Source of the DNA: a virus
Taxonomy: Duplodnaviria; Heunggongvirae; Uroviricota; Caudoviricetes
DNA length: 64,000 bases
IMG/VR virus record: IMGVR_UViG_3300014038_000199
Reading direction: 5' to 3' (one strand)
The number at the start of each line of letters is the position of its first letter. Positions within the stretch are counted from its first letter, which is position 1. This document shows, in pieces, positions 24,890 through 61,588 of this stretch. The position numbers were made by a program, and so were the translations under genes. The notes beneath the pieces are model-generated. The model was not told where the DNA came from and searched no databases. It saw only the letters and a program-made list of their open reading frames with translations.

Positions 24890-25051
24890 AGTGTAAATAT
24901 TTTAGTTAATGTCAATAAAGATAAGCTATTACCTAATGAGGAGTTATTGCAAGATTTAATGTCTATTATTCATGTTTTTTCTTATAAAATATATGGTCTT
25001 AGAAAATATAAAAAATCCATAAGTGAGGATAAAGATGTTAATAAGTTATAA
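24890..25051 (+). pseudogene. tnpA: IS607 serine-recombinase TnpA, C-terminal remnant
   Basis: SVNILVNVNKDKLLPNEELLQDLMSIIHVFSYKIYGLRKYKK resembles the IS607 TnpA tail (EEL..DL.SII.VFS..LYG.R). No start codon or catalytic domain. Confidence 0.8.
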
Positions 25052-26174
25052 AACAGAAATAAATCCAACATTTTCACAAATAGATAAAATAAATAAAACA
25101 TTAGGTGTATGTAGATTTTTATATAATACTTACATATATGAAAATATACAAGCTTATAAAAATAATAAGTCATTTATTACAGGGTATGATTTTGATAAAT
25201 ATGTCAATAATACACTAATACCTAATAATTTATGGATTAAAGATGCATATTCAAAAGCAAGGAAAAAAGCAATTATGAATGCAGAAATGGCATTTAAGAA
25301 CTTTTTTAAGAATAAATCGAAATTTCCTAAGTTTAAGAAAAAAGGTAAATGCCATAACAGTTTTTATTTTGTTAAAAATAATAAAACTGATTGCATTATA
25401 CAAAGGCATAGAATAAAAATACCGTCTTTGGGATTTGTAAGATTAAAAGAAAAAGGTTATATACCAGTTGGTAAAGTTATTAAATCAGGTTGTATATCTA
25501 AACAGACAAATAAATATTTTTTATCTGTTATTATAGATATTAATATATCACAATCTATATCAACTTATAGCAATGGATTGGGTATTGATTTAGGACTTAA
25601 AAACTTTGCTGTTTTATCTACAGGTAAAACATATAAAAATATAAATAAATTAAGAGTAATTAGAAATATAGAAAAACGCTTAAAAAGAGAGCAAAAGCGT
25701 CTTTCTAAAAAATATAAAAATAAAAAGAGAGGAGTAGCTACTTTAGATAAGAATATACATAAGAAAATTAGCAGAATACAAAAACTACATTATAAATTAT
25801 CTTGTATTAGAACAGATTATATAAATAAAATAGTAAGTGAATTGGTGAAAACCAAGCCACAATTCATAACTATAGAAAATCTGAATATTACAGGTATGAT
25901 GAAAAATAGGCATTTATCAAAAGCTATATCTAATCAAAAGTTTTATGAATTTAGGACTAGACTAATAAATAAGGCTAAGAGATTAAATATAGAAATAAGG
26001 TTAGCTGATGTATTTTATCCCTCAAGTAAATTATGCTCATGCTGTAATAATATTAAACATGATTTGAAACTAAAAGATAGAATATATAAGTGTAATTATT
26101 GTAATCTTGAAATAGATAGAGATTATAATGCAAGTATAAATCTTATGAAATGTCAAAATTATAAATTAGCATAG
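25035..26174 (+). CDS. tnpB: TnpB RNA-guided nuclease
   Basis: N-terminal HTH (GVCRFLYN), RuvC triad GIDLG / TIENL / DRDYNASINL, zinc finger CSCC...CNYC. ATG at 25035 follows GAGG. Confidence 0.95.
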   Translation: MLISYKTEINPTFSQIDKINKTLGVCRFLYNTYIYENIQAYKNNKSFITGYDFDKYVNNTLIPNNLWIKDAYSKARKKAIMNAEMAFKNFFKNKSKFPKFKKKGKCHNSFYFVKNNKTDCIIQRHRIKIPSLGFVRLKEKGYIPVGKVIKSGCISKQTNKYFLSVIIDINISQSISTYSNGLGIDLGLKNFAVLSTGKTYKNINKLRVIRNIEKRLKREQKRLSKKYKNKKRGVATLDKNIHKKISRIQKLHYKLSCIRTDYINKIVSELVKTKPQFITIENLNITGMMKNRHLSKAISNQKFYEFRTRLINKAKRLNIEIRLADVFYPSSKLCSCCNNIKHDLKLKDRIYKCNYCNLEIDRDYNASINLMKCQNYKLA

Positions 26175-26328
26175 TTAAATATAATTTATAATATGTACCG
26201 ATGGCTAGTCGGGAATTTACGCCTTTGGAGAACTATACAAACAAGAGTAGTAATTATATATTATGAAATTGGGTTCATTGAATAAGGAATTTTCTTATTA
26301 TATACTTTTGTATATGATTTAAGTAGCA
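26175..26328 (+). ncRNA. TnpB omegaRNA scaffold (right-end RNA)
   Basis: GTACCGATGGCTAGTCGGGAATTTACGCCTTTGGAG...GGGTTCATTGAATAAGGAA lies between tnpB and the right end, the typical omegaRNA position. Confidence 0.7.
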
Positions 26329-55500: not shown

Positions 55501-56712
55501 ATGCAAAGAGATAAGTTTATAGGGTATTTTCAAAATATACCTGTTTCAATAAATAATTTATATGGAGACCCTTTCTTTTGTAATCAAGTTGAAAATACAT
55601 TTGAAAAATTAGATAAGTTAAGAGAGTCAAAGCATACTGGAATAGTGTCAATCATTACTAAAACTGAAATAAATACTGATATAGCTTTACGATTGTCTGA
55701 ATATACTAAAGACTTAAATTTAGTTGTCTTAGTATCTATATCAGAATTACCAAAAAGCATAGAGAATATAGAGGGTAACAGATATAAAACTTTAGGTTTA
55801 TGTGAAAAATACAATATACACAATATACCTTATATAAGACCTTTTATACCCAATGAAAATACTGATAAAGCAACTATAAGTAATATGTTTTCTAAGATAA
55901 TCGAGCAATATTCAAGTGATAAGCAAATATCAGTTATTATATCTGGTTTAAGGGGCAATGATGACATATTAAAAAAGTTAAATCAGACTGAAGAAGAATT
56001 AAGGCAGTGGAGTATGCGAGTAAAAACAATGCCAAAAGCTGTAAAAACATATATTTATGATATTTGCAAAGAAAATAATATAAATGTTTTTGAAAGGACA
56101 GCTTGCGGAGTAAGTTATGTTTTAGGTTTTGATAAGACATATAATCCTTATTATTCCTCTCTTAAGTTAGCAAATTGTAATAACTGTCCAATGAAAAGTA
56201 CTTGCTATGACTTACAGGATAGTTTTATACCAACTAATGATGATTTGGAATTAGTGCAATTTTTGGGATATACTGCTAAGATTGTAAGTAGAAACTCAGA
56301 CAAAAGCAATTATATTTGTACTGTAGAGCCTGATAATCGTAAGGAGTGTATAAGTTGTTGTACTTCTTGTTTTAAGCTTCAAAGGGATAGTATAGAACTT
56401 GAATATTTTGATGGGGTATGTTTAGGTGATTTAAGTTTACTTAGGTTATTAACTAAGAAATTGGTATTTTGTAAAGGTATCATAGATAATGGAGATAGCG
56501 ATATAGCAAAACCAAAAGGTAAGACTTTGATAGATAACAATGTTTATGTGTTAAACTCTTGGTATTCCTTATCTAAAAACACAGGTTCTTGTTATGGTTG
56601 TAGTTATTGCATAGTACCACATTATAAAAATCAAAATAAAGAATATGGTGAAATACCTTTTGATTTGGCTAAAAGACTGTATGTTGAATTGGAGGCAAAA
56701 AATAATGAGTAG
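55501..56712 (+). CDS. Radical SAM-like Fe-S protein, apparently circularly permuted
   Basis: Starts at YGDPF, followed by IITK, VLVSIS and IRPFIP (SPL-like barrel motifs). Cys triad SCYGCSYC is near the C-terminus. Extra Cys clusters CNNCPMKSTC and CISCCTSC. Confidence 0.65.
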   Translation: MQRDKFIGYFQNIPVSINNLYGDPFFCNQVENTFEKLDKLRESKHTGIVSIITKTEINTDIALRLSEYTKDLNLVVLVSISELPKSIENIEGNRYKTLGLCEKYNIHNIPYIRPFIPNENTDKATISNMFSKIIEQYSSDKQISVIISGLRGNDDILKKLNQTEEELRQWSMRVKTMPKAVKTYIYDICKENNINVFERTACGVSYVLGFDKTYNPYYSSLKLANCNNCPMKSTCYDLQDSFIPTNDDLELVQFLGYTAKIVSRNSDKSNYICTVEPDNRKECISCCTSCFKLQRDSIELEYFDGVCLGDLSLLRLLTKKLVFCKGIIDNGDSDIAKPKGKTLIDNNVYVLNSWYSLSKNTGSCYGCSYCIVPHYKNQNKEYGEIPFDLAKRLYVELEAKNNE

Positions 56713-57565
56713 TTTGCTTTGTCCTGTTGATTGTAAGTACTGTATGGCTAGTAAGATAGACCAGAGAAGCAAGTATTGGAATAGTGGTAACAGAATAGGA
56801 ATAAATAAGACTTGTATCTTTATAAACAGGTTAGTTACTGATAAGCCACTAAAGGATAGTGACATAGACTTTTCAATCTTAGAGGGAGATGCTGTAGGTT
56901 TTCAAGGCATTACTGATTGTTTTTGGAATGTGTTTTATGATGATTTAAGATTTTTAGTAGATAACCTAGATAATTTTAAGATTAAAAAGTTGGTATTAAC
57001 AACTAAAATACCTGTAACTGATAAAATTTTAGAATTAATTAGGGATAAGCGTGTTTTAGTAATTTATTCATTGACTGGACTTGATTCTTTAGAGAAAACA
57101 ACTACCAAAAGCAGATTGGACTCTATGAAAAAATTAATTGCTAATGATATAGATACTTTTCCTATAATACATCCTTATATACATGGAGCGTCTGACATAT
57201 CTTTTTTAAGTGAACTTAGTGATTTAGGTATAAAACAGATATCATTTAAGGGGTTCAGATATAATAAAACTAATATGAGTGATTTAAGTCATTGTATACC
57301 TGCTGATGTTTTGGATAAGTATGATAACAATGAAGAAGAAACACTTATAGGTGGTGAGTACTTAATGTCTGAACTTGCAAAGCATAATTTAGAATATATT
57401 GACTTAAAAGAGTATGTATATAACTCATTGGACAGTATTTACAGTTTAGATAGAGATATTGTTATAAATAAAGTAAAGCATATATTGGATACTGTTGTAG
57501 TATCCAGTTCAGAAAAGAACAGAGATAGTTTATTAGATTACATCGTAAAGAGGAGGTGCAAATAA
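56705..57565 (+). CDS. Radical SAM protein (spore-photoproduct-lyase-like fold)
   Basis: Start refined to ATG at 56705 after GGAGG. CPVDCKYC, TDCF, LTTK, YSLTG...LE, IHPYI. Confidence 0.8.
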   Translation: MSSLLCPVDCKYCMASKIDQRSKYWNSGNRIGINKTCIFINRLVTDKPLKDSDIDFSILEGDAVGFQGITDCFWNVFYDDLRFLVDNLDNFKIKKLVLTTKIPVTDKILELIRDKRVLVIYSLTGLDSLEKTTTKSRLDSMKKLIANDIDTFPIIHPYIHGASDISFLSELSDLGIKQISFKGFRYNKTNMSDLSHCIPADVLDKYDNNEEETLIGGEYLMSELAKHNLEYIDLKEYVYNSLDSIYSLDRDIVINKVKHILDTVVVSSSEKNRDSLLDYIVKRRCK

Positions 57566-58818
57566 TGAAAGATTTATTTTATGGTTATGATAGCAGAAAT
57601 GTTTATTTGGATAATGCCGCAAGTACACTATGCCTTAAGTCTGTAAAAGATAAAGCAGATAAATTTTTATTGACTTATGGCTCAGTGCATAGAGGATATG
57701 GAGAAAACTCTCTTAAATCTACTAATAGTTATGAAAGTGCAAGAGATTTTATTTTAGAGAAGTTAAATGGAGATAAGAATAAGCATACATTAGTTTTTAC
57801 TGCTAACACGACTGATAGCATAAACAAGCTTACTCACTTGTTTAACTGGGAAAAAGATGATGTGGTTTTAGTAAGTGATATAGAGCATAGTTCAAATTAT
57901 CTTCCGTATATTAAGTCAGCTAAAGTCGAAACAATAAAGGCAAGAAATTTTATTATAAGACCTGATGATGTTGAGAGGGCAATTTTAGAAAATAAGAATG
58001 TACGCTGTGTTTCACTTGCAGCTGCAAGTAACATTACAGGTTATGTTATAGACATTAAAAAGATATATGAGATATGCAAGAAACATTCTGTGCTATTTTT
58101 ATTAGATGCTTCTCAATATGCTCCACATTTTAAGCTTAATATAAATGATTGTGATGTGCTATTTTATTGTGGACATAAGATGTATGCACCTTTTGGTTCT
58201 GGTATATTAGCAGGTAGAAAAGACATTTTAGAGTCTTATACTGATATATCGTTTACTGGAGGTGGAAATATTTTATATGCAAACAAGGATAAAATAATCT
58301 ATAAAGAGGCTCCTTATTTACATGAGATAGGAACTCCGAATGCGGTAGGTGCTGTTACAATAGCAGAGGCTCATAGGGTTTTATATGATGATATAGGTAT
58401 TGAAACTTTAGAAAGGCATAATAAAGCACTTGTTAAAGAAATAGATAAAAGTAGAGCGAGATTAATGAATTACGGATATAATGTTTATTTCAATGATGAT
58501 TGTGATACAAGCTTAAGAACTCCAATACTTGTAATAGATAATACTAGAATGTCCAATAAACAAACTTGTGAATTTTTGAATGATGACAGATTAGCAACTG
58601 GTTTTGATTTTAATGTCTTTGTAAGAGAGGGAGCGTTTTGCGTTTATAAGATATTAGAGTCTATAAAACCAGAACTAATTAATCAAGAGCCTATAATAAA
58701 TGGGGAGTTAAACCCTGATTATTCTTTAATAAGATTATCAGCAGGTTTAATAAATGATAGACTTGATATAGAAAGAGCGGTAGATAAGTTGTGTTATATA
58801 AATGATGTTTTCAGTTAG
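57565..58818 (+). CDS. PLP-dependent class V aminotransferase, SufS/CsdA-type cysteine desulfurase
   Basis: YLDNAAST, VHRG, EHSSN, ASNITG, DASQ, GHKMYAP.G.G, GTPN and VREGAFC (position of the SufS catalytic Cys). TAATG coupling to the upstream gene. Confidence 0.88.
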   Translation: MKDLFYGYDSRNVYLDNAASTLCLKSVKDKADKFLLTYGSVHRGYGENSLKSTNSYESARDFILEKLNGDKNKHTLVFTANTTDSINKLTHLFNWEKDDVVLVSDIEHSSNYLPYIKSAKVETIKARNFIIRPDDVERAILENKNVRCVSLAAASNITGYVIDIKKIYEICKKHSVLFLLDASQYAPHFKLNINDCDVLFYCGHKMYAPFGSGILAGRKDILESYTDISFTGGGNILYANKDKIIYKEAPYLHEIGTPNAVGAVTIAEAHRVLYDDIGIETLERHNKALVKEIDKSRARLMNYGYNVYFNDDCDTSLRTPILVIDNTRMSNKQTCEFLNDDRLATGFDFNVFVREGAFCVYKILESIKPELINQEPIINGELNPDYSLIRLSAGLINDRLDIERAVDKLCYINDVFS

Positions 58819-59533: not shown

Positions 59534-59562
59534 TTGACAAGTATAAGTTTATTTGTTATAAT
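59534..59562 (+). promoter_or_regulatory. Consensus sigmaA promoter driving the RNA array
   Basis: TTGACA-17 nt-TATAAT with extended -10 TG and an AT-rich upstream region. Confidence 0.88.
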
Positions 59563-59600
59563 ATAAGAGTAGTTTTCAATAAATAAGTTTCTTTCGTTTA

Positions 59601-59632
59601 ACCAGTTAAGGCTCTGGTATAACAAAAGCCTT
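59601..59632 (+). ncRNA. H-type pseudoknot motif, copy 1
   Basis: ACCAG/CTGGT stem. Loop AAGGCT pairs with AGCCTT after an A-rich linker. Confidence 0.6.
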
Positions 59633-59677
59633 AGTATAAAAGGTGGTTTTTATCAGGTTCAATTCCTGATTATACTT
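59633..59677 (+). ncRNA. Anticodon-less tRNA mimic 1
   Basis: Acceptor AGTATAA/TTATACT, T-arm TCAGG-TTCAATT-CCTGA, 13-nt GG-containing connector. Confidence 0.7.
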
Positions 59678-59732
59678 TGCCTATTAGGCAATTAATAACA
59701 GACTGCGACTGTTTTACTTCTCATGTAACAGT

Positions 59733-59782
59733 TAGATACTTGCAGACGGGCATTAAGATTGGTTCAAATCCAATGTATCTAA
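59733..59782 (+). ncRNA. Anticodon-less tRNA mimic 2
   Basis: Acceptor TAGATAC/GTATCTA, D-arm TGC-AGACGG-GCA, T-arm ATTGG-TTCAAAT-CCAAT. Confidence 0.75.
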
Positions 59783-59801
59783 TTCCACTGTTTGTGGTTT
59801 T

Positions 59802-59980
59802 AATAGTTAAGAATATTGAGAATTTTAATCTTTATATTATTTTCAATAAAAAGCGACTTGGAATGAGATACTATCTCAAACTTTAGTTAAGGTGTGCAGT
59901 ATACCTAGTGTCCTAGGATAATTTATTCTAGCTTAGCTAAAAGGTAAAATATAATTTATTTTTATATTTTACTAACTGTT
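59802..59980 (+). ncRNA. Putative multibranched structured RNA
   Basis: Closing stem AATAGTTA/TAACTGTT encloses six helices. Confidence 0.5.
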
Positions 59981-60028
59981 CAATTCTTCCTAAAAATGAG
60001 TCTGATTTTTAGCTTTCAGGCTCGACAT

Positions 60029-60101
60029 GCTATCATAGCTCAGTTGGTAGAGCATGTGGCTGTTAACCACAGTGTCATAGGTTCGAGTCCTATTGGTAGC
60101 G
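60029..60101 (+). tRNA. tRNA-Asn(GTT), CCA not encoded
   Basis: Full cloverleaf: GCTATCA/TGGTAGC, GCTC/GAGC, TGTGG-CTGTTAA-CCACA, ATAGG-TTCGAGT-CCTAT. Confidence 0.95.
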
Positions 60102-60175
60102 TTGCCCTTGAGGCAATAGGTGTTTGGCGTTAAAAGTCTGTCTTAGGTTACAGACTACCCCCTTATTATCATTAA

Positions 60176-60205
60176 ACCAGTTAAGGCTCTGGTATAAAAA
60201 AGCCT
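60176..60205 (+). ncRNA. H-type pseudoknot motif, copy 2
   Basis: ACCAGTTAAGGCTCTGGTATAAAAAAGCCT, near-identical to copy 1. Confidence 0.6.
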
Positions 60206-60211
60206 GTATAG

Positions 60212-60284
60212 AGCAGGATAGAGCAAATGGTAGCTCACTGGATTCATACTCCAGCTGTTATAGGTTCGAGTCCTATTCCTGCAA
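60212..60284 (+). tRNA. tRNA-Met(CAT), initiator-like, CCA not encoded
   Basis: Cloverleaf with 1:72 mismatch (A:A), GAGC/GCTC D-stem and CTGGA-TTCATAC-TCCAG anticodon arm. Confidence 0.9.
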
Positions 60285-60354
60285 TAAGCACTTTGTGCTT
60301 CTTGTAACATATTTATTCCTTTCTTATAGGCTACCGTGAGGTAGCCTGAAGTAT

Positions 60355-60468: not shown

Positions 60469-60607
60469 ATTGCCTTCTTAGGCATAAAAGACTCCATTTC
60501 AATTTTTTGGGTAGGATAGGTTAGCTGATAAATTATCCTTTTAAGTTTTTAATGTTGTTTTATGCTTTTTGTGTATACTATATAAACAGCTAACCTATCT
60601 AAAATAA

Positions 60608-60691
60608 ACAGGTATGGCGGAATGGGTAGACGCAGAGGACTTAAAATCCTCTTATAGAAATATAGTGCCAGTTCAAGTCTGGTTACCTGTA
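60608..60691 (+). tRNA. tRNA-Leu(TAA), CCA not encoded
   Basis: ACAGGTA/TACCTGT, GAGGA-CTTAAAA-TCCTC, long variable arm, GCCAG-TTCAAGT-CTGGT. Confidence 0.93.
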
Positions 60692-60764
60692 TGAGTAGTT
60701 AACATTGGGCATGGTGATGGCTACTTACTTCACATGTTTCTCACCTGAGAAACCTCCAACTTTT

Positions 60765-60789
60765 AAGGCACTGAAAACAGTGCCTTTTT
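60765..60789 (+). terminator. Terminator closing the RNA array
   Basis: AAGGCACTG-AAAA-CAGTGCCTT followed by T residues. Confidence 0.8.
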
Positions 60790-60805: not shown

Positions 60806-61588
60806 ATGTTTATGAGTACTAATATATTAGATATGCTTAGGAAAATAGAATCAGATAACAATATAGAAATTATATTTGCTTGCGATATAGGCAGTAGAGC
60901 ATTAGGATATTCTACTGAAAACAGTGATTATGATATCAGATTTATTTACATACAAAATTCTAAAAAGTATTTAACTATAGATAAAAATAAATTTACTGAT
61001 ACAATTAAATTTAATAAAGACAATTTAGATTTTATAGGATATGACATTAAAAAAGCGTTAAATTTCTGTTTAACTTCTAATACAGCTTTGTGGGATATGA
61101 TTTACTCAAGTTCTGTTATTTTAGAAACTAGCTTATGTAATGATATTAAGAATATAGCTAAAAAGTTTTTTAATAAAAAGACTCTTATAAAGCAATATAC
61201 AGCTAATGCTTATAACAGATATACTAAATACATACTAAATAAAGATACTGTTAAAATAAAGGATTATGCTTTAACTTTAGTAAAGCTAGCTTTAGCTATA
61301 GCTATTTCAAGAGATACTTTTAATAAAGATACTGTGATTAAGGCAAATTTATCAAATTGTTTTAGCATATACCTAAAAGATATGTCAAATAATTTAGAAA
61401 ATTTAATAAAGCTTAGATTAAAAGGTAATGAATACACACAAAGGATAGAATTATTTGATAATTACATTAAATATTATATAGAAATACTTGATAAAATAGA
61501 AAAGACTTTAGTTTACGATACATCAGATAATAATTTAGATGAATATTTTTATAGATTAGTATTAACTAGGATAAGTAATGGTAAGTAG
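60806..61588 (+). CDS. Pol-beta superfamily nucleotidyltransferase (YcgL/RlaP-like)
   Basis: ACDIGSRALGYSTENSDYDIRFIY (hG[GS]...DxD) and D..GYDIKKAL....SN. Confidence 0.85.
   Translation: MFMSTNILDMLRKIESDNNIEIIFACDIGSRALGYSTENSDYDIRFIYIQNSKKYLTIDKNKFTDTIKFNKDNLDFIGYDIKKALNFCLTSNTALWDMIYSSSVILETSLCNDIKNIAKKFFNKKTLIKQYTANAYNRYTKYILNKDTVKIKDYALTLVKLALAIAISRDTFNKDTVIKANLSNCFSIYLKDMSNNLENLIKLRLKGNEYTQRIELFDNYIKYYIEILDKIEKTLVYDTSDNNLDEYFYRLVLTRISNGK

Follow-up and report, generated by a model that had tools for sequence, protein, structure and literature searches.

A covarying pseudoknot RNA family in phages and giant mobile elements, and its candidate role as a 3′-end cap

The tRNA operon and its two pseudoknots

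The window, that is, the whole 64,000-nucleotide stretch of viral record IMGVR_UViG_3300014038_000199 that was analysed, carries an operon of tRNAs and tRNA-like units in which a small pseudoknot occurs twice (Table 1). A scan of 23 window proteins gave matches that include gyrase A and B, DnaB, NAD ligase, TraG/HerA-like and FtsK ATPases, ParB and TnpB; no virion protein was found among the 23, and from these protein matches the AT-rich window is read as a giant plasmid-like or phage-like element. A TnpB/Cas12f-like gene followed by a RAGATH-18 RNA occupies positions 25023–26289, an arrangement named in the available text of PMC11061315. Just 5′ of the tRNA operon, at 55501–58818, two cysteine-rich ORFs with no Pfam match precede a class-V aminotransferase (cysteine desulfurase-like).

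The operon promoter is syntenic in the relative L615, and transcription in the window would start near 59569. Array tRNAs of this element family have no encoded CCA, and a hairpin lies within 0–5 nt of most tRNA 3′ ends (59677–59691, 60102–60116, 60285–60301 and 60692–60727 in the window; also in L614 and L175). The tRNA-like unit with an oversized loop has counterparts at a similar place in L609 (839–926) and on the minus strand of L614, with inserts of other lengths. Directly 5′ of tRNA-Leu there is a long hairpin (60512–60602) with perfect 13-bp arms and a 59-nt loop.

Table 1. Features of the tRNA operon and its surroundings, in window coordinates
Feature	Position	Strand	Basis or remark
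Sigma70-type promoter of tRNA operon	59534–59562	+	12/12 consensus bases, extended −10
AU-rich leader, ~32 nt	59569–59600	+	
Pseudoknot copy 1	59601–59631	+	Sequence, shared 18-mer, covariance model, family covariation
Copy 1, sequence parts	ACCAG 59601–59605; loop TTAAGGCT 59606–59613; CTGGT 59614–59618; ATAACAAA 59619–59626; AGCCT 59627–59631		
Copy 1, helices	P1 59601–59605/59614–59618; P2 59609–59613/59627–59631		L1 UUA; no L2; L3 A-rich
Mini-tRNA 1	59633–59677	+	Acceptor stem (7/7 pairs) and T arm, joined by 13-nt connector; D and anticodon arms absent; candidate substrate of RNase P and RNase Z
Hairpin directly 3′ of mini-tRNA 1	59677–59691	+	Similar hairpins after other array tRNAs
Mini-tRNA 2	59733–59782	+	18-nt connector; L614/L615 orthologue with compensatory changes in both stems
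tRNA-Asn(GUU)	60028–60102	+	CCA not encoded
Spacer	60103–60175	+	Hairpin, second hairpin, C/U-rich single strand
Pseudoknot copy 2	60176–60205	+	L3 one base shorter than in copy 1
tRNA-Met(CAU)	60212–60284	+	6 nt 3′ of copy 2
tRNA-like unit, oversized (~50-nt) anticodon loop	60354–60469	+	ARAGORN intron option; sequence
tRNA-Leu(UAA)	60608–60691	+	
Intrinsic terminator-like hairpin at array end	60765–60786	+	
RlaP-family RNA-repair nucleotidyltransferase gene, directly 3′ of array	60806–61588	+	PF10127, E 4e-36

The two repeats, which lie 575 nt apart amid the tRNAs, are genuine copies of a small knotted RNA fold. An exact 18-mer common to both occurs twice in the window against 0.03 expected from shuffles, and a covariance model built from 65 outside sequences, when run on the window, finds the copies at E 2e-10 and 3.7e-6 and no third match below E 0.05. 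Neither copy is matched by Rfam, even at E ≤ 10. Either helix alone reaches only about −6 kcal/mol in simple folding, so any stability of the whole knot is presumed; P2 of copy 1 can lengthen by 2–3 pairs. The original prediction had found both copies and placed the second correctly, 6 nt 5′ of the tRNA-Met at 60212, and needs small corrections at the first: copy 1 ends at 59631 rather than 59632, and it does not quite abut the tRNA mimic that follows, one base (T59632) standing between them. The absence of a downstream gene, also part of that prediction, holds in the window and fails for the wider family described below.

Covariation and genomic setting of the family

A 16-base core of the motif is present at 14 viral loci, five of which also have the A-rich linker and complementary tail; ARAGORN tRNAs lie nearby in four of these five, compared with none of the nine other core loci. 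A search of viral contigs in which the four central P2 positions could be any base listed 123 matches; 25 of those listed, covering 12 different 4-mers, have a perfect complement. A stricter pattern returned 83 stretches from metagenomes and just 10 from 185,579 cellular genomes, of which five are fully paired, so the motif is rare in cellular genomes. Of the 73 unique matches obtained with P2 open, 56 pair at all four positions (47 of them all Watson–Crick). Loop–tail covariation is real, because P2 was unconstrained in that search and still pairs, with 28 different 4-mers.

Among distinct loop/tail pairs, 21 of 46 are all Watson–Crick, against a mean of 0.69 and a maximum of 5 in 10,000 permutations. 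In an ungapped alignment of 65 matches, which keeps unpaired matches, 94.3% of cells pair, versus 72.9% after shuffling and 24%–51% in slid controls; the same alignment holds 151 two-sided changes versus 52.7 after shuffling, a number reached in none of 500 shuffles. These pairing counts take in related sequences, and chance or simple descent is nevertheless an unlikely explanation of them because of the many pair types and their spread over 60 flank clusters. The H-type fold had been proposed with loop–tail covariation as its test, and these homologues from outside the window bear it out. P1 covaries too, other P1 sequences turning up when P1 is left free; G-U pairs are present in both helices, and a sixth P2 pair in 37 of the 65 alignment members. 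Because the searches used a fixed core sequence, the pattern biases both the size of the family and the apparent constancy of L3.

Other searches yielded little. A pattern with P1 free and the tail fixed gave mostly coding noise (P1 of at least 4 bp in 9 of the 120 matches listed), one anchored on the tRNA D arm gave 3 real members in 34 matches and no new variants, and a loose pattern in two whole records matched no more often than controls. Neither the motif nor its context revealed a cultured carrier when compared by BLAST with cultured phages and plasmids, where all hits were chance or tRNA matches. Among sequencing runs, no RNA data set is listed as carrying the element, and contigs from two small-share runs cover neither window copy. 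No account of the knot was found in the literature covered, from which subscription papers and the supplement of a 224-motif screen (PMC5737381) were outside scope; the available parts of PMC3997798 and of a ROOL cryo-EM preprint hold nothing on such a knot. A variant with a 9-nt loop occurs in L614 (1195–1230 and 1394–1429, minus strand) and L609 (193–228). Judged by sequence comparison, this is an uncatalogued family of ~31-nt H-type pseudoknots without an Rfam match, common to many unrelated phages and giant mobile elements.

The genomic position of the knot was analysed at 91 sites in 60 flank clusters, one of 92 descriptor matches (L190) having been dropped as likely chance. In 20 of the 60 lineages there are tRNAs within 600 nt on the knot's own strand; no lineage has them on the opposite one. 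In 33 clusters an ORF ends within 120 nt upstream, and in 15 of these 33 its stop is 5–11 nt before P1, versus 1 of 20 on the reverse strand, a range picked after viewing the data (for 4–13 nt, 16/33 versus 4/20, p 0.036). The stop-to-knot spacing peaks at 5–8 nt and TAA is the commonest stop. Downstream starts are scattered over 16–121 nt, and no 7-nt window contains more than 7 of the 28.

Downstream contexts are diverse. In 70 such contexts there are 13 tRNAs within 20 nt, three mini-tRNAs, two terminators and three U tracts, along with two twister, two hammerhead II and one DUF3800-X context, these last labels having been assigned by hand from Rfam results. A further seven are long hairpins (including L551, which is terminator-like by eye), 18 have a start codon only, with the RBS and start 16–51 nt off, 18 are unclassified and one is truncated. 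A tRNA within 20 nt upstream of the knot is seen in three of the 70. Twister-P1 right behind the knot is represented by three Rfam matches below gathering score (E 4e-7 to 1e-4), with a cut site that we take to fall 6–7 nt after P2, and hammerhead II just behind it by three matches above and two below gathering score, with the cut 26–34 nt downstream. In three related loci the 3′ end of a ROOL RNA lies 31–33 nt before the knot, and in one of them (L566) tRNA-Asn follows 5 nt after it. L570 has three copies with a terminator after each and a visible ORF stop 6–7 nt upstream of two, and in L217 a lone knot sits between two tRNAs with gaps of 3 and 4 nt. Hence the 3′-end placing once tied to RNase P substrates stands as a position and extends to ribozymes, terminators, stops and ROOL, and it is not tRNA-specific: 16 of the 70 contexts have a tRNA or mini-tRNA within 20 nt downstream, and 18 have only an RBS and start.

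Several neighbouring features are recorded here in their own right. An RNA resembling the tRNA-like domain of tmRNA, 78–81 nt long and without the message part, lies ~30 nt upstream of a knot and tRNA in L172 (2059–2136) and L173 (2059–2139, minus strand); it scores above the Rfam gathering score and has a G3-U70 acceptor. In L582 (877–939, minus strand) a DUF3800-X-like RNA, below gathering score at E 0.003, starts 5 nt past the knot. A subgroup of six loci (L329, L631, L550, L562, L583 and L567) has a hairpin directly upstream and a start codon 24–50 nt downstream, belonging in three cases to a replication initiator or primase gene; in this subgroup the knot may be the tail of a larger RNA. 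In L181, L616, L623, L202, L221 and L245 the knot follows genes whose products have acidic tails ending in LPF or APF, as in single-stranded DNA-binding proteins; Pfam gave no match on these partial proteins.

The closest relatives of the window's element repeat the arrangement. L011 shares array order with the window, and its gene after the array has 74% identity to the window's. L011 and the L614/L615/L609 group have three to five knots each, with compensated P2 helices, before tRNAs and mini-tRNAs. The knot before tRNA-Met in L609 and L614 is orthologous to copy 2, and in L609 three of its P2 pairs are changed on both sides. The mini-tRNAs of the window and these relatives form a family of 45–50 nt (47–50 nt in the relatives), with an acceptor stem, a T arm and a 13–18-nt connector and without an anticodon, and they are kept with compensatory changes. 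Besides the two in the window, they comprise four units in L614 (minus strand), two in L609 (101–147 and 232–279) and one in L011 (2930–2977). Gaps from knot to mini-tRNA are 1, 5, 7 and 11 nt.

Comparison with preQ1-I and other known RNAs

The family plan consists of a P1 of 5 bp that is always closed by G-C, an L1 of UU(R), a covarying P2 of 5–6 bp, no L2 and an A-rich L3. When the closing pair was left free, all 12 unique matches that pair fully had G-C there. Among the 91 unique matches listed by a free-loop search, 13 pair 5/5, and 10 of these 13 have U as the first loop base. The last loop U and its tail A become C and G in L311. From the free-position searches, four features make up the fixed core: the G-C pair that closes P1, the U at the start of the loop, the U-A pair at the junction and the adenines of L3.

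This plan is like that of preQ1-I riboswitches (types I–III), which are H-type knots of about the same size, with a 5-bp P1 closed by G-C, an L1 that starts with U and an A-rich L3. The likeness would include a quintuple-base motif, predicted here and described, in the available part of PMC11625349, for both preQ1-I and the dENE-poly(A) stability folds; in preQ1-I, according to the same part, the ligand replaces a cross-strand pair and is read by a cytosine. By analogy, the L3 adenines would lie in the P1 minor groove, the first loop U would enter a U·A-U triple, and the knot's own U-A pair would fill the layer where preQ1 sits in riboswitches. The knot is probably constitutive and ligand-free, since the specificity cytosine is absent and the cross-strand pair is present. 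Unlike preQ1-I, it has no L2, a fully paired P2 that varies freely and no expression platform; in place of the cytosine the window and most members have a U paired to a tail A, and C is found only with a tail G (L311). Scanning 33 downstream ORFs, most of them without a family, gave no queuosine or other metabolic gene. Identity with the preQ1 riboswitch was rejected on the missing cytosine, queuosine genes, expression platform and Rfam match, and a link to queuosine tRNAs on the variety of the tRNAs that follow (Asn, Met, Sec, Pro, Thr, Glu, Gly, Val, Ile, Lys, Leu). The early description of the fold as preQ1-I-like in topology without being a preQ1 riboswitch is supported by these fold features and by the free-loop matches.

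The knot is not a member of preQ1-I, ENE, type III antitoxins, coremin or theta, and it is nearest to ENE by position and predicted core. With ENE/MALAT1 and dENE-poly(A) it would share a U·A-U triple and the same quintuple-base transition (PMC11625349, available part). As in MALAT1-mascRNA, it lies just 5′ of a tRNA-like, predicted RNase P substrate, by 1 and 6 nt in the window and in 16 of 70 contexts overall; the pairing of upstream RNA with a tRNA-like unit and the predicted 3′-end protection are also alike, as far as the available part of PMC13541005 goes. The differences are substantial. The knot has ~31 nt and probably one or two triples, whereas an ENE is a U-rich internal loop that holds a long A tract; consecutive U·A-U triples are not seen, L1 having two U, with one conserved junction U-A pair and no internal loop. 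The knot is moreover found in prokaryotic mobile elements and also before ribozymes and terminators, and we claim a likeness without homology.

Bacteria stabilise 3′ ends with hairpins, namely REP elements and intrinsic terminators. The knot is similarly found just after stops, between genes and at transcript ends; unlike these hairpins, it is constrained in sequence, usually has no U tract and often stands beside a terminator. Type III antitoxins (ToxI, CptI) and phage pseudo-ToxI are also H-type, of similar length, present in several copies per locus and carried by mobile elements (PMC5086642, available part). There a type III locus is described as tandem repeats, a terminator and then a ToxN, CptN or TenpN gene. 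This identity was rejected: the window copies are not tandem (575 nt apart), their flanks vary, the gene after the terminator is RlaP, and Rfam gives no match. Theta ribozymes, HDV-like nested double pseudoknots on the 3′ side of gut phage tRNAs (PMC10879173, available part), are likewise small structured RNAs tied to phage tRNA processing; unlike them, ours is a single knot mostly on the 5′ side of tRNAs. The coremin/xrRNA-C consensus is given in the available part of PMC10520033 as a YGAD or YGNNAD hairpin loop, an 8–10-nt spacer and a second hairpin. The knot loop, UURNNNNU, departs from it, and this candidate too was rejected. So, judged by reading frames, was a readthrough or frameshift pseudoknot, as frames mostly shut within 37 codons and no ORF surrounds the window copies. 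In the tobamovirus upstream pseudoknot domain, small H-type knots likewise separate the stop codon from a tRNA-like structure; the domain is a plant RNA virus element that acts with host translation factors, and is likened to the present knots, between stop and tRNA-like fold, by description only.

Candidate roles of the knot

Our best reading, and on balance the probable one, is that the knot is a constitutive triplex cap that shields 3′ ends left by RNase P, ribozymes or termination. It would fold without a ligand and block 3′-to-5′ exonucleases at ends formed a few bases downstream. The window operon would be transcribed from the promoter at 59534; RNase P would cut 1 nt past copy 1 (at the mini-tRNA) and 6 nt past copy 2 (at tRNA-Met), and RNase Z would free the 3′ sides of the CCA-less tRNAs. 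The freed leader RNA of ~64 nt with copy 1 and the spacer RNA of ~110 nt with copy 2 would then each end in a knot. Exonucleases have a minimum overhang of about 7–10 nt. The overhang left after the knot would be too short for good loading; most tRNA and twister cuts would leave 1–9 nt past it. To attack structured RNA, RNase R and PNPase depend on a helicase or on a 3′ overhang that is single-stranded (PMC5714204, available part). All of these steps, from cleavage by RNase P and RNase Z to the triplex and its protective effect, are predictions.

A 3′ cap is favoured because the factor shared by the contexts is a 3′ end just downstream together with a gene or noncoding RNA upstream. At RNase P, ribozyme and terminator sites an element that cuts would duplicate what is already there, and one that serves the 5′ side would have no use; a cap would be complementary. 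Contrary to a cap are the 18 start-only and 18 unclassified contexts of the 70, in which a cut has to be assumed, and its partial redundancy before terminators. There would also be little or nothing to protect where the leader is as short as that of copy 1 (~32 nt) or where the knot stands alone between tRNAs, as in L217. The start-only contexts, the short copy 1 leader and the lone L217 copy keep three other readings alive: insulation or pausing, action in trans and a 5′ role.

By the first of these, a fast-folding knot would act during transcription as an insulator, keeping upstream sequence from misfolding the tRNA, ribozyme or terminator, and maybe pausing RNA polymerase. We regard this as unlikely. 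It accords with a knot directly 5′ of several kinds of structured RNA, it would account for L217 and for window copy 1, and a ligand-free preQ1 pseudoknot stabilises a pause (bioRxiv 10.1101/350447, available part); the tight post-stop spacing is nonetheless left unexplained, and many copies precede unstructured A/U-rich leaders.

Less likely again is that the knot is itself the product, a 40–110-nt RNA that binds a protein in trans, such as a decoy for a host nuclease comparable to type III antitoxin mimics, or whose flank is an antisense seed. Most copies are at mRNA ends, there are no tandem repeats and no toxin gene behind the terminator, and the free variation of P2 and the flanks contrasts with antitoxin tails, each of which is specific to its toxin. 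The arrays of relatives, with up to five copies and with short spacers and mini-tRNAs between them, do fit such a product, as does the L217 copy alone between two tRNAs. Type III antitoxins are H-type pseudoknots of 34–36 nt, and phage mimics of them exist (PMC5086642, available part). There is also a weak upstream anti-Shine-Dalgarno excess (40 of 60 above shuffled, −6.4 versus −5.5 kcal/mol).

An element serving the 5′ side of the downstream RNA, either an xrRNA-like barrier to RNase J or a translation leader or operator of the next gene, seems improbable. An RBS and start follow in 18 of 70 contexts, several of the close starts belong to replication or DNA-binding genes (HU, RecA/UvsX-like, initiators, primase), and the predicted transcription start is ~32 nt from copy 1. 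Such an element would nonetheless serve nothing where RNase P sites, twister cuts or terminators follow; the distances to starts spread over 16–121 nt without clustering beyond 7 of 28 per 7-nt window, and the loop lacks the coremin consensus.

More improbable still is an action on the terminating ribosome (pausing, recycling, coupling or readthrough), with the knot at the mRNA entry channel when the stop is read. The peak at 5–8 nt after stops is the spacing of readthrough and frameshift pseudoknots. Against this, no ORF lies upstream of the window, ROOL and tRNA-array copies, and the stop used most often is TAA; readthrough in particular is unlikely because frames after the stop mostly close in 0–37 codons, often within the knot.

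Very improbable, finally, are two further readings. A preQ1-I-like riboswitch or aptamer variant with another, adenine-like ligand would explain the G, U and L3 adenines placed as in the preQ1-I pocket, and an L383 match with an A-A mismatch at the pocket layer, but the specificity C is replaced by a U paired with tail A (C-G in L311), L2 is absent, none of 33 downstream ORFs is a queuosine or metabolic gene, the tRNAs behind the knot are of many kinds, and there is no expression platform. Equally improbable, a tiny self-cleaving ribozyme of a new kind, cutting genes and tRNAs apart, would suit a motif found amid tRNAs and ribozymes, as theta ribozymes are (PMC10879173, available part), but there would be no need for it immediately 5′ of RNase P substrates, twister, hammerhead and terminators, and the knot has no conserved unpaired G or C for general acid/base; the Rfam ribozyme models found nothing on the motif, though they detected the adjoining hammerhead and twister.

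A bolder extension of the 3′-cap reading, offered tentatively, is that phages and giant plasmid-like elements possess a prokaryotic counterpart of the MALAT1 triple helix and mascRNA. A 31-nt ligand-free, preQ1-like triplex would cap 3′ ends, anticodon-less mini-tRNAs would serve only to call RNase P and RNase Z, and the arrays would be factories of doubly protected spacer RNAs (a 5′ hairpin, a single-stranded seed and a 3′ knot) that act in trans on the host.

The new points are the knot's association with conserved mini-tRNAs, the ROOL tail, the ribozyme spacing and the proposed mapping to a self-filled preQ1 pocket. The fold would be a natural ligand-free form of preQ1-I, which bears on the origin of that riboswitch, and a 31-nt part of this kind would be useful for RNA stabilisation in synthetic biology. 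If the 3′-cap reading is true, bacteria and their phages would have a compact, portable 3′-end stabiliser that is built on a tertiary fold, not a hairpin. The habit of phages of placing self-cleaving ribozymes and tRNAs beside genes would then make sense: the cut would make the end and the knot would guard it. Single genes of an operon could then be stabilised separately, ROOL and other array RNAs would get a defined 3′ end, and the tRNA mimics would get a role in processing.
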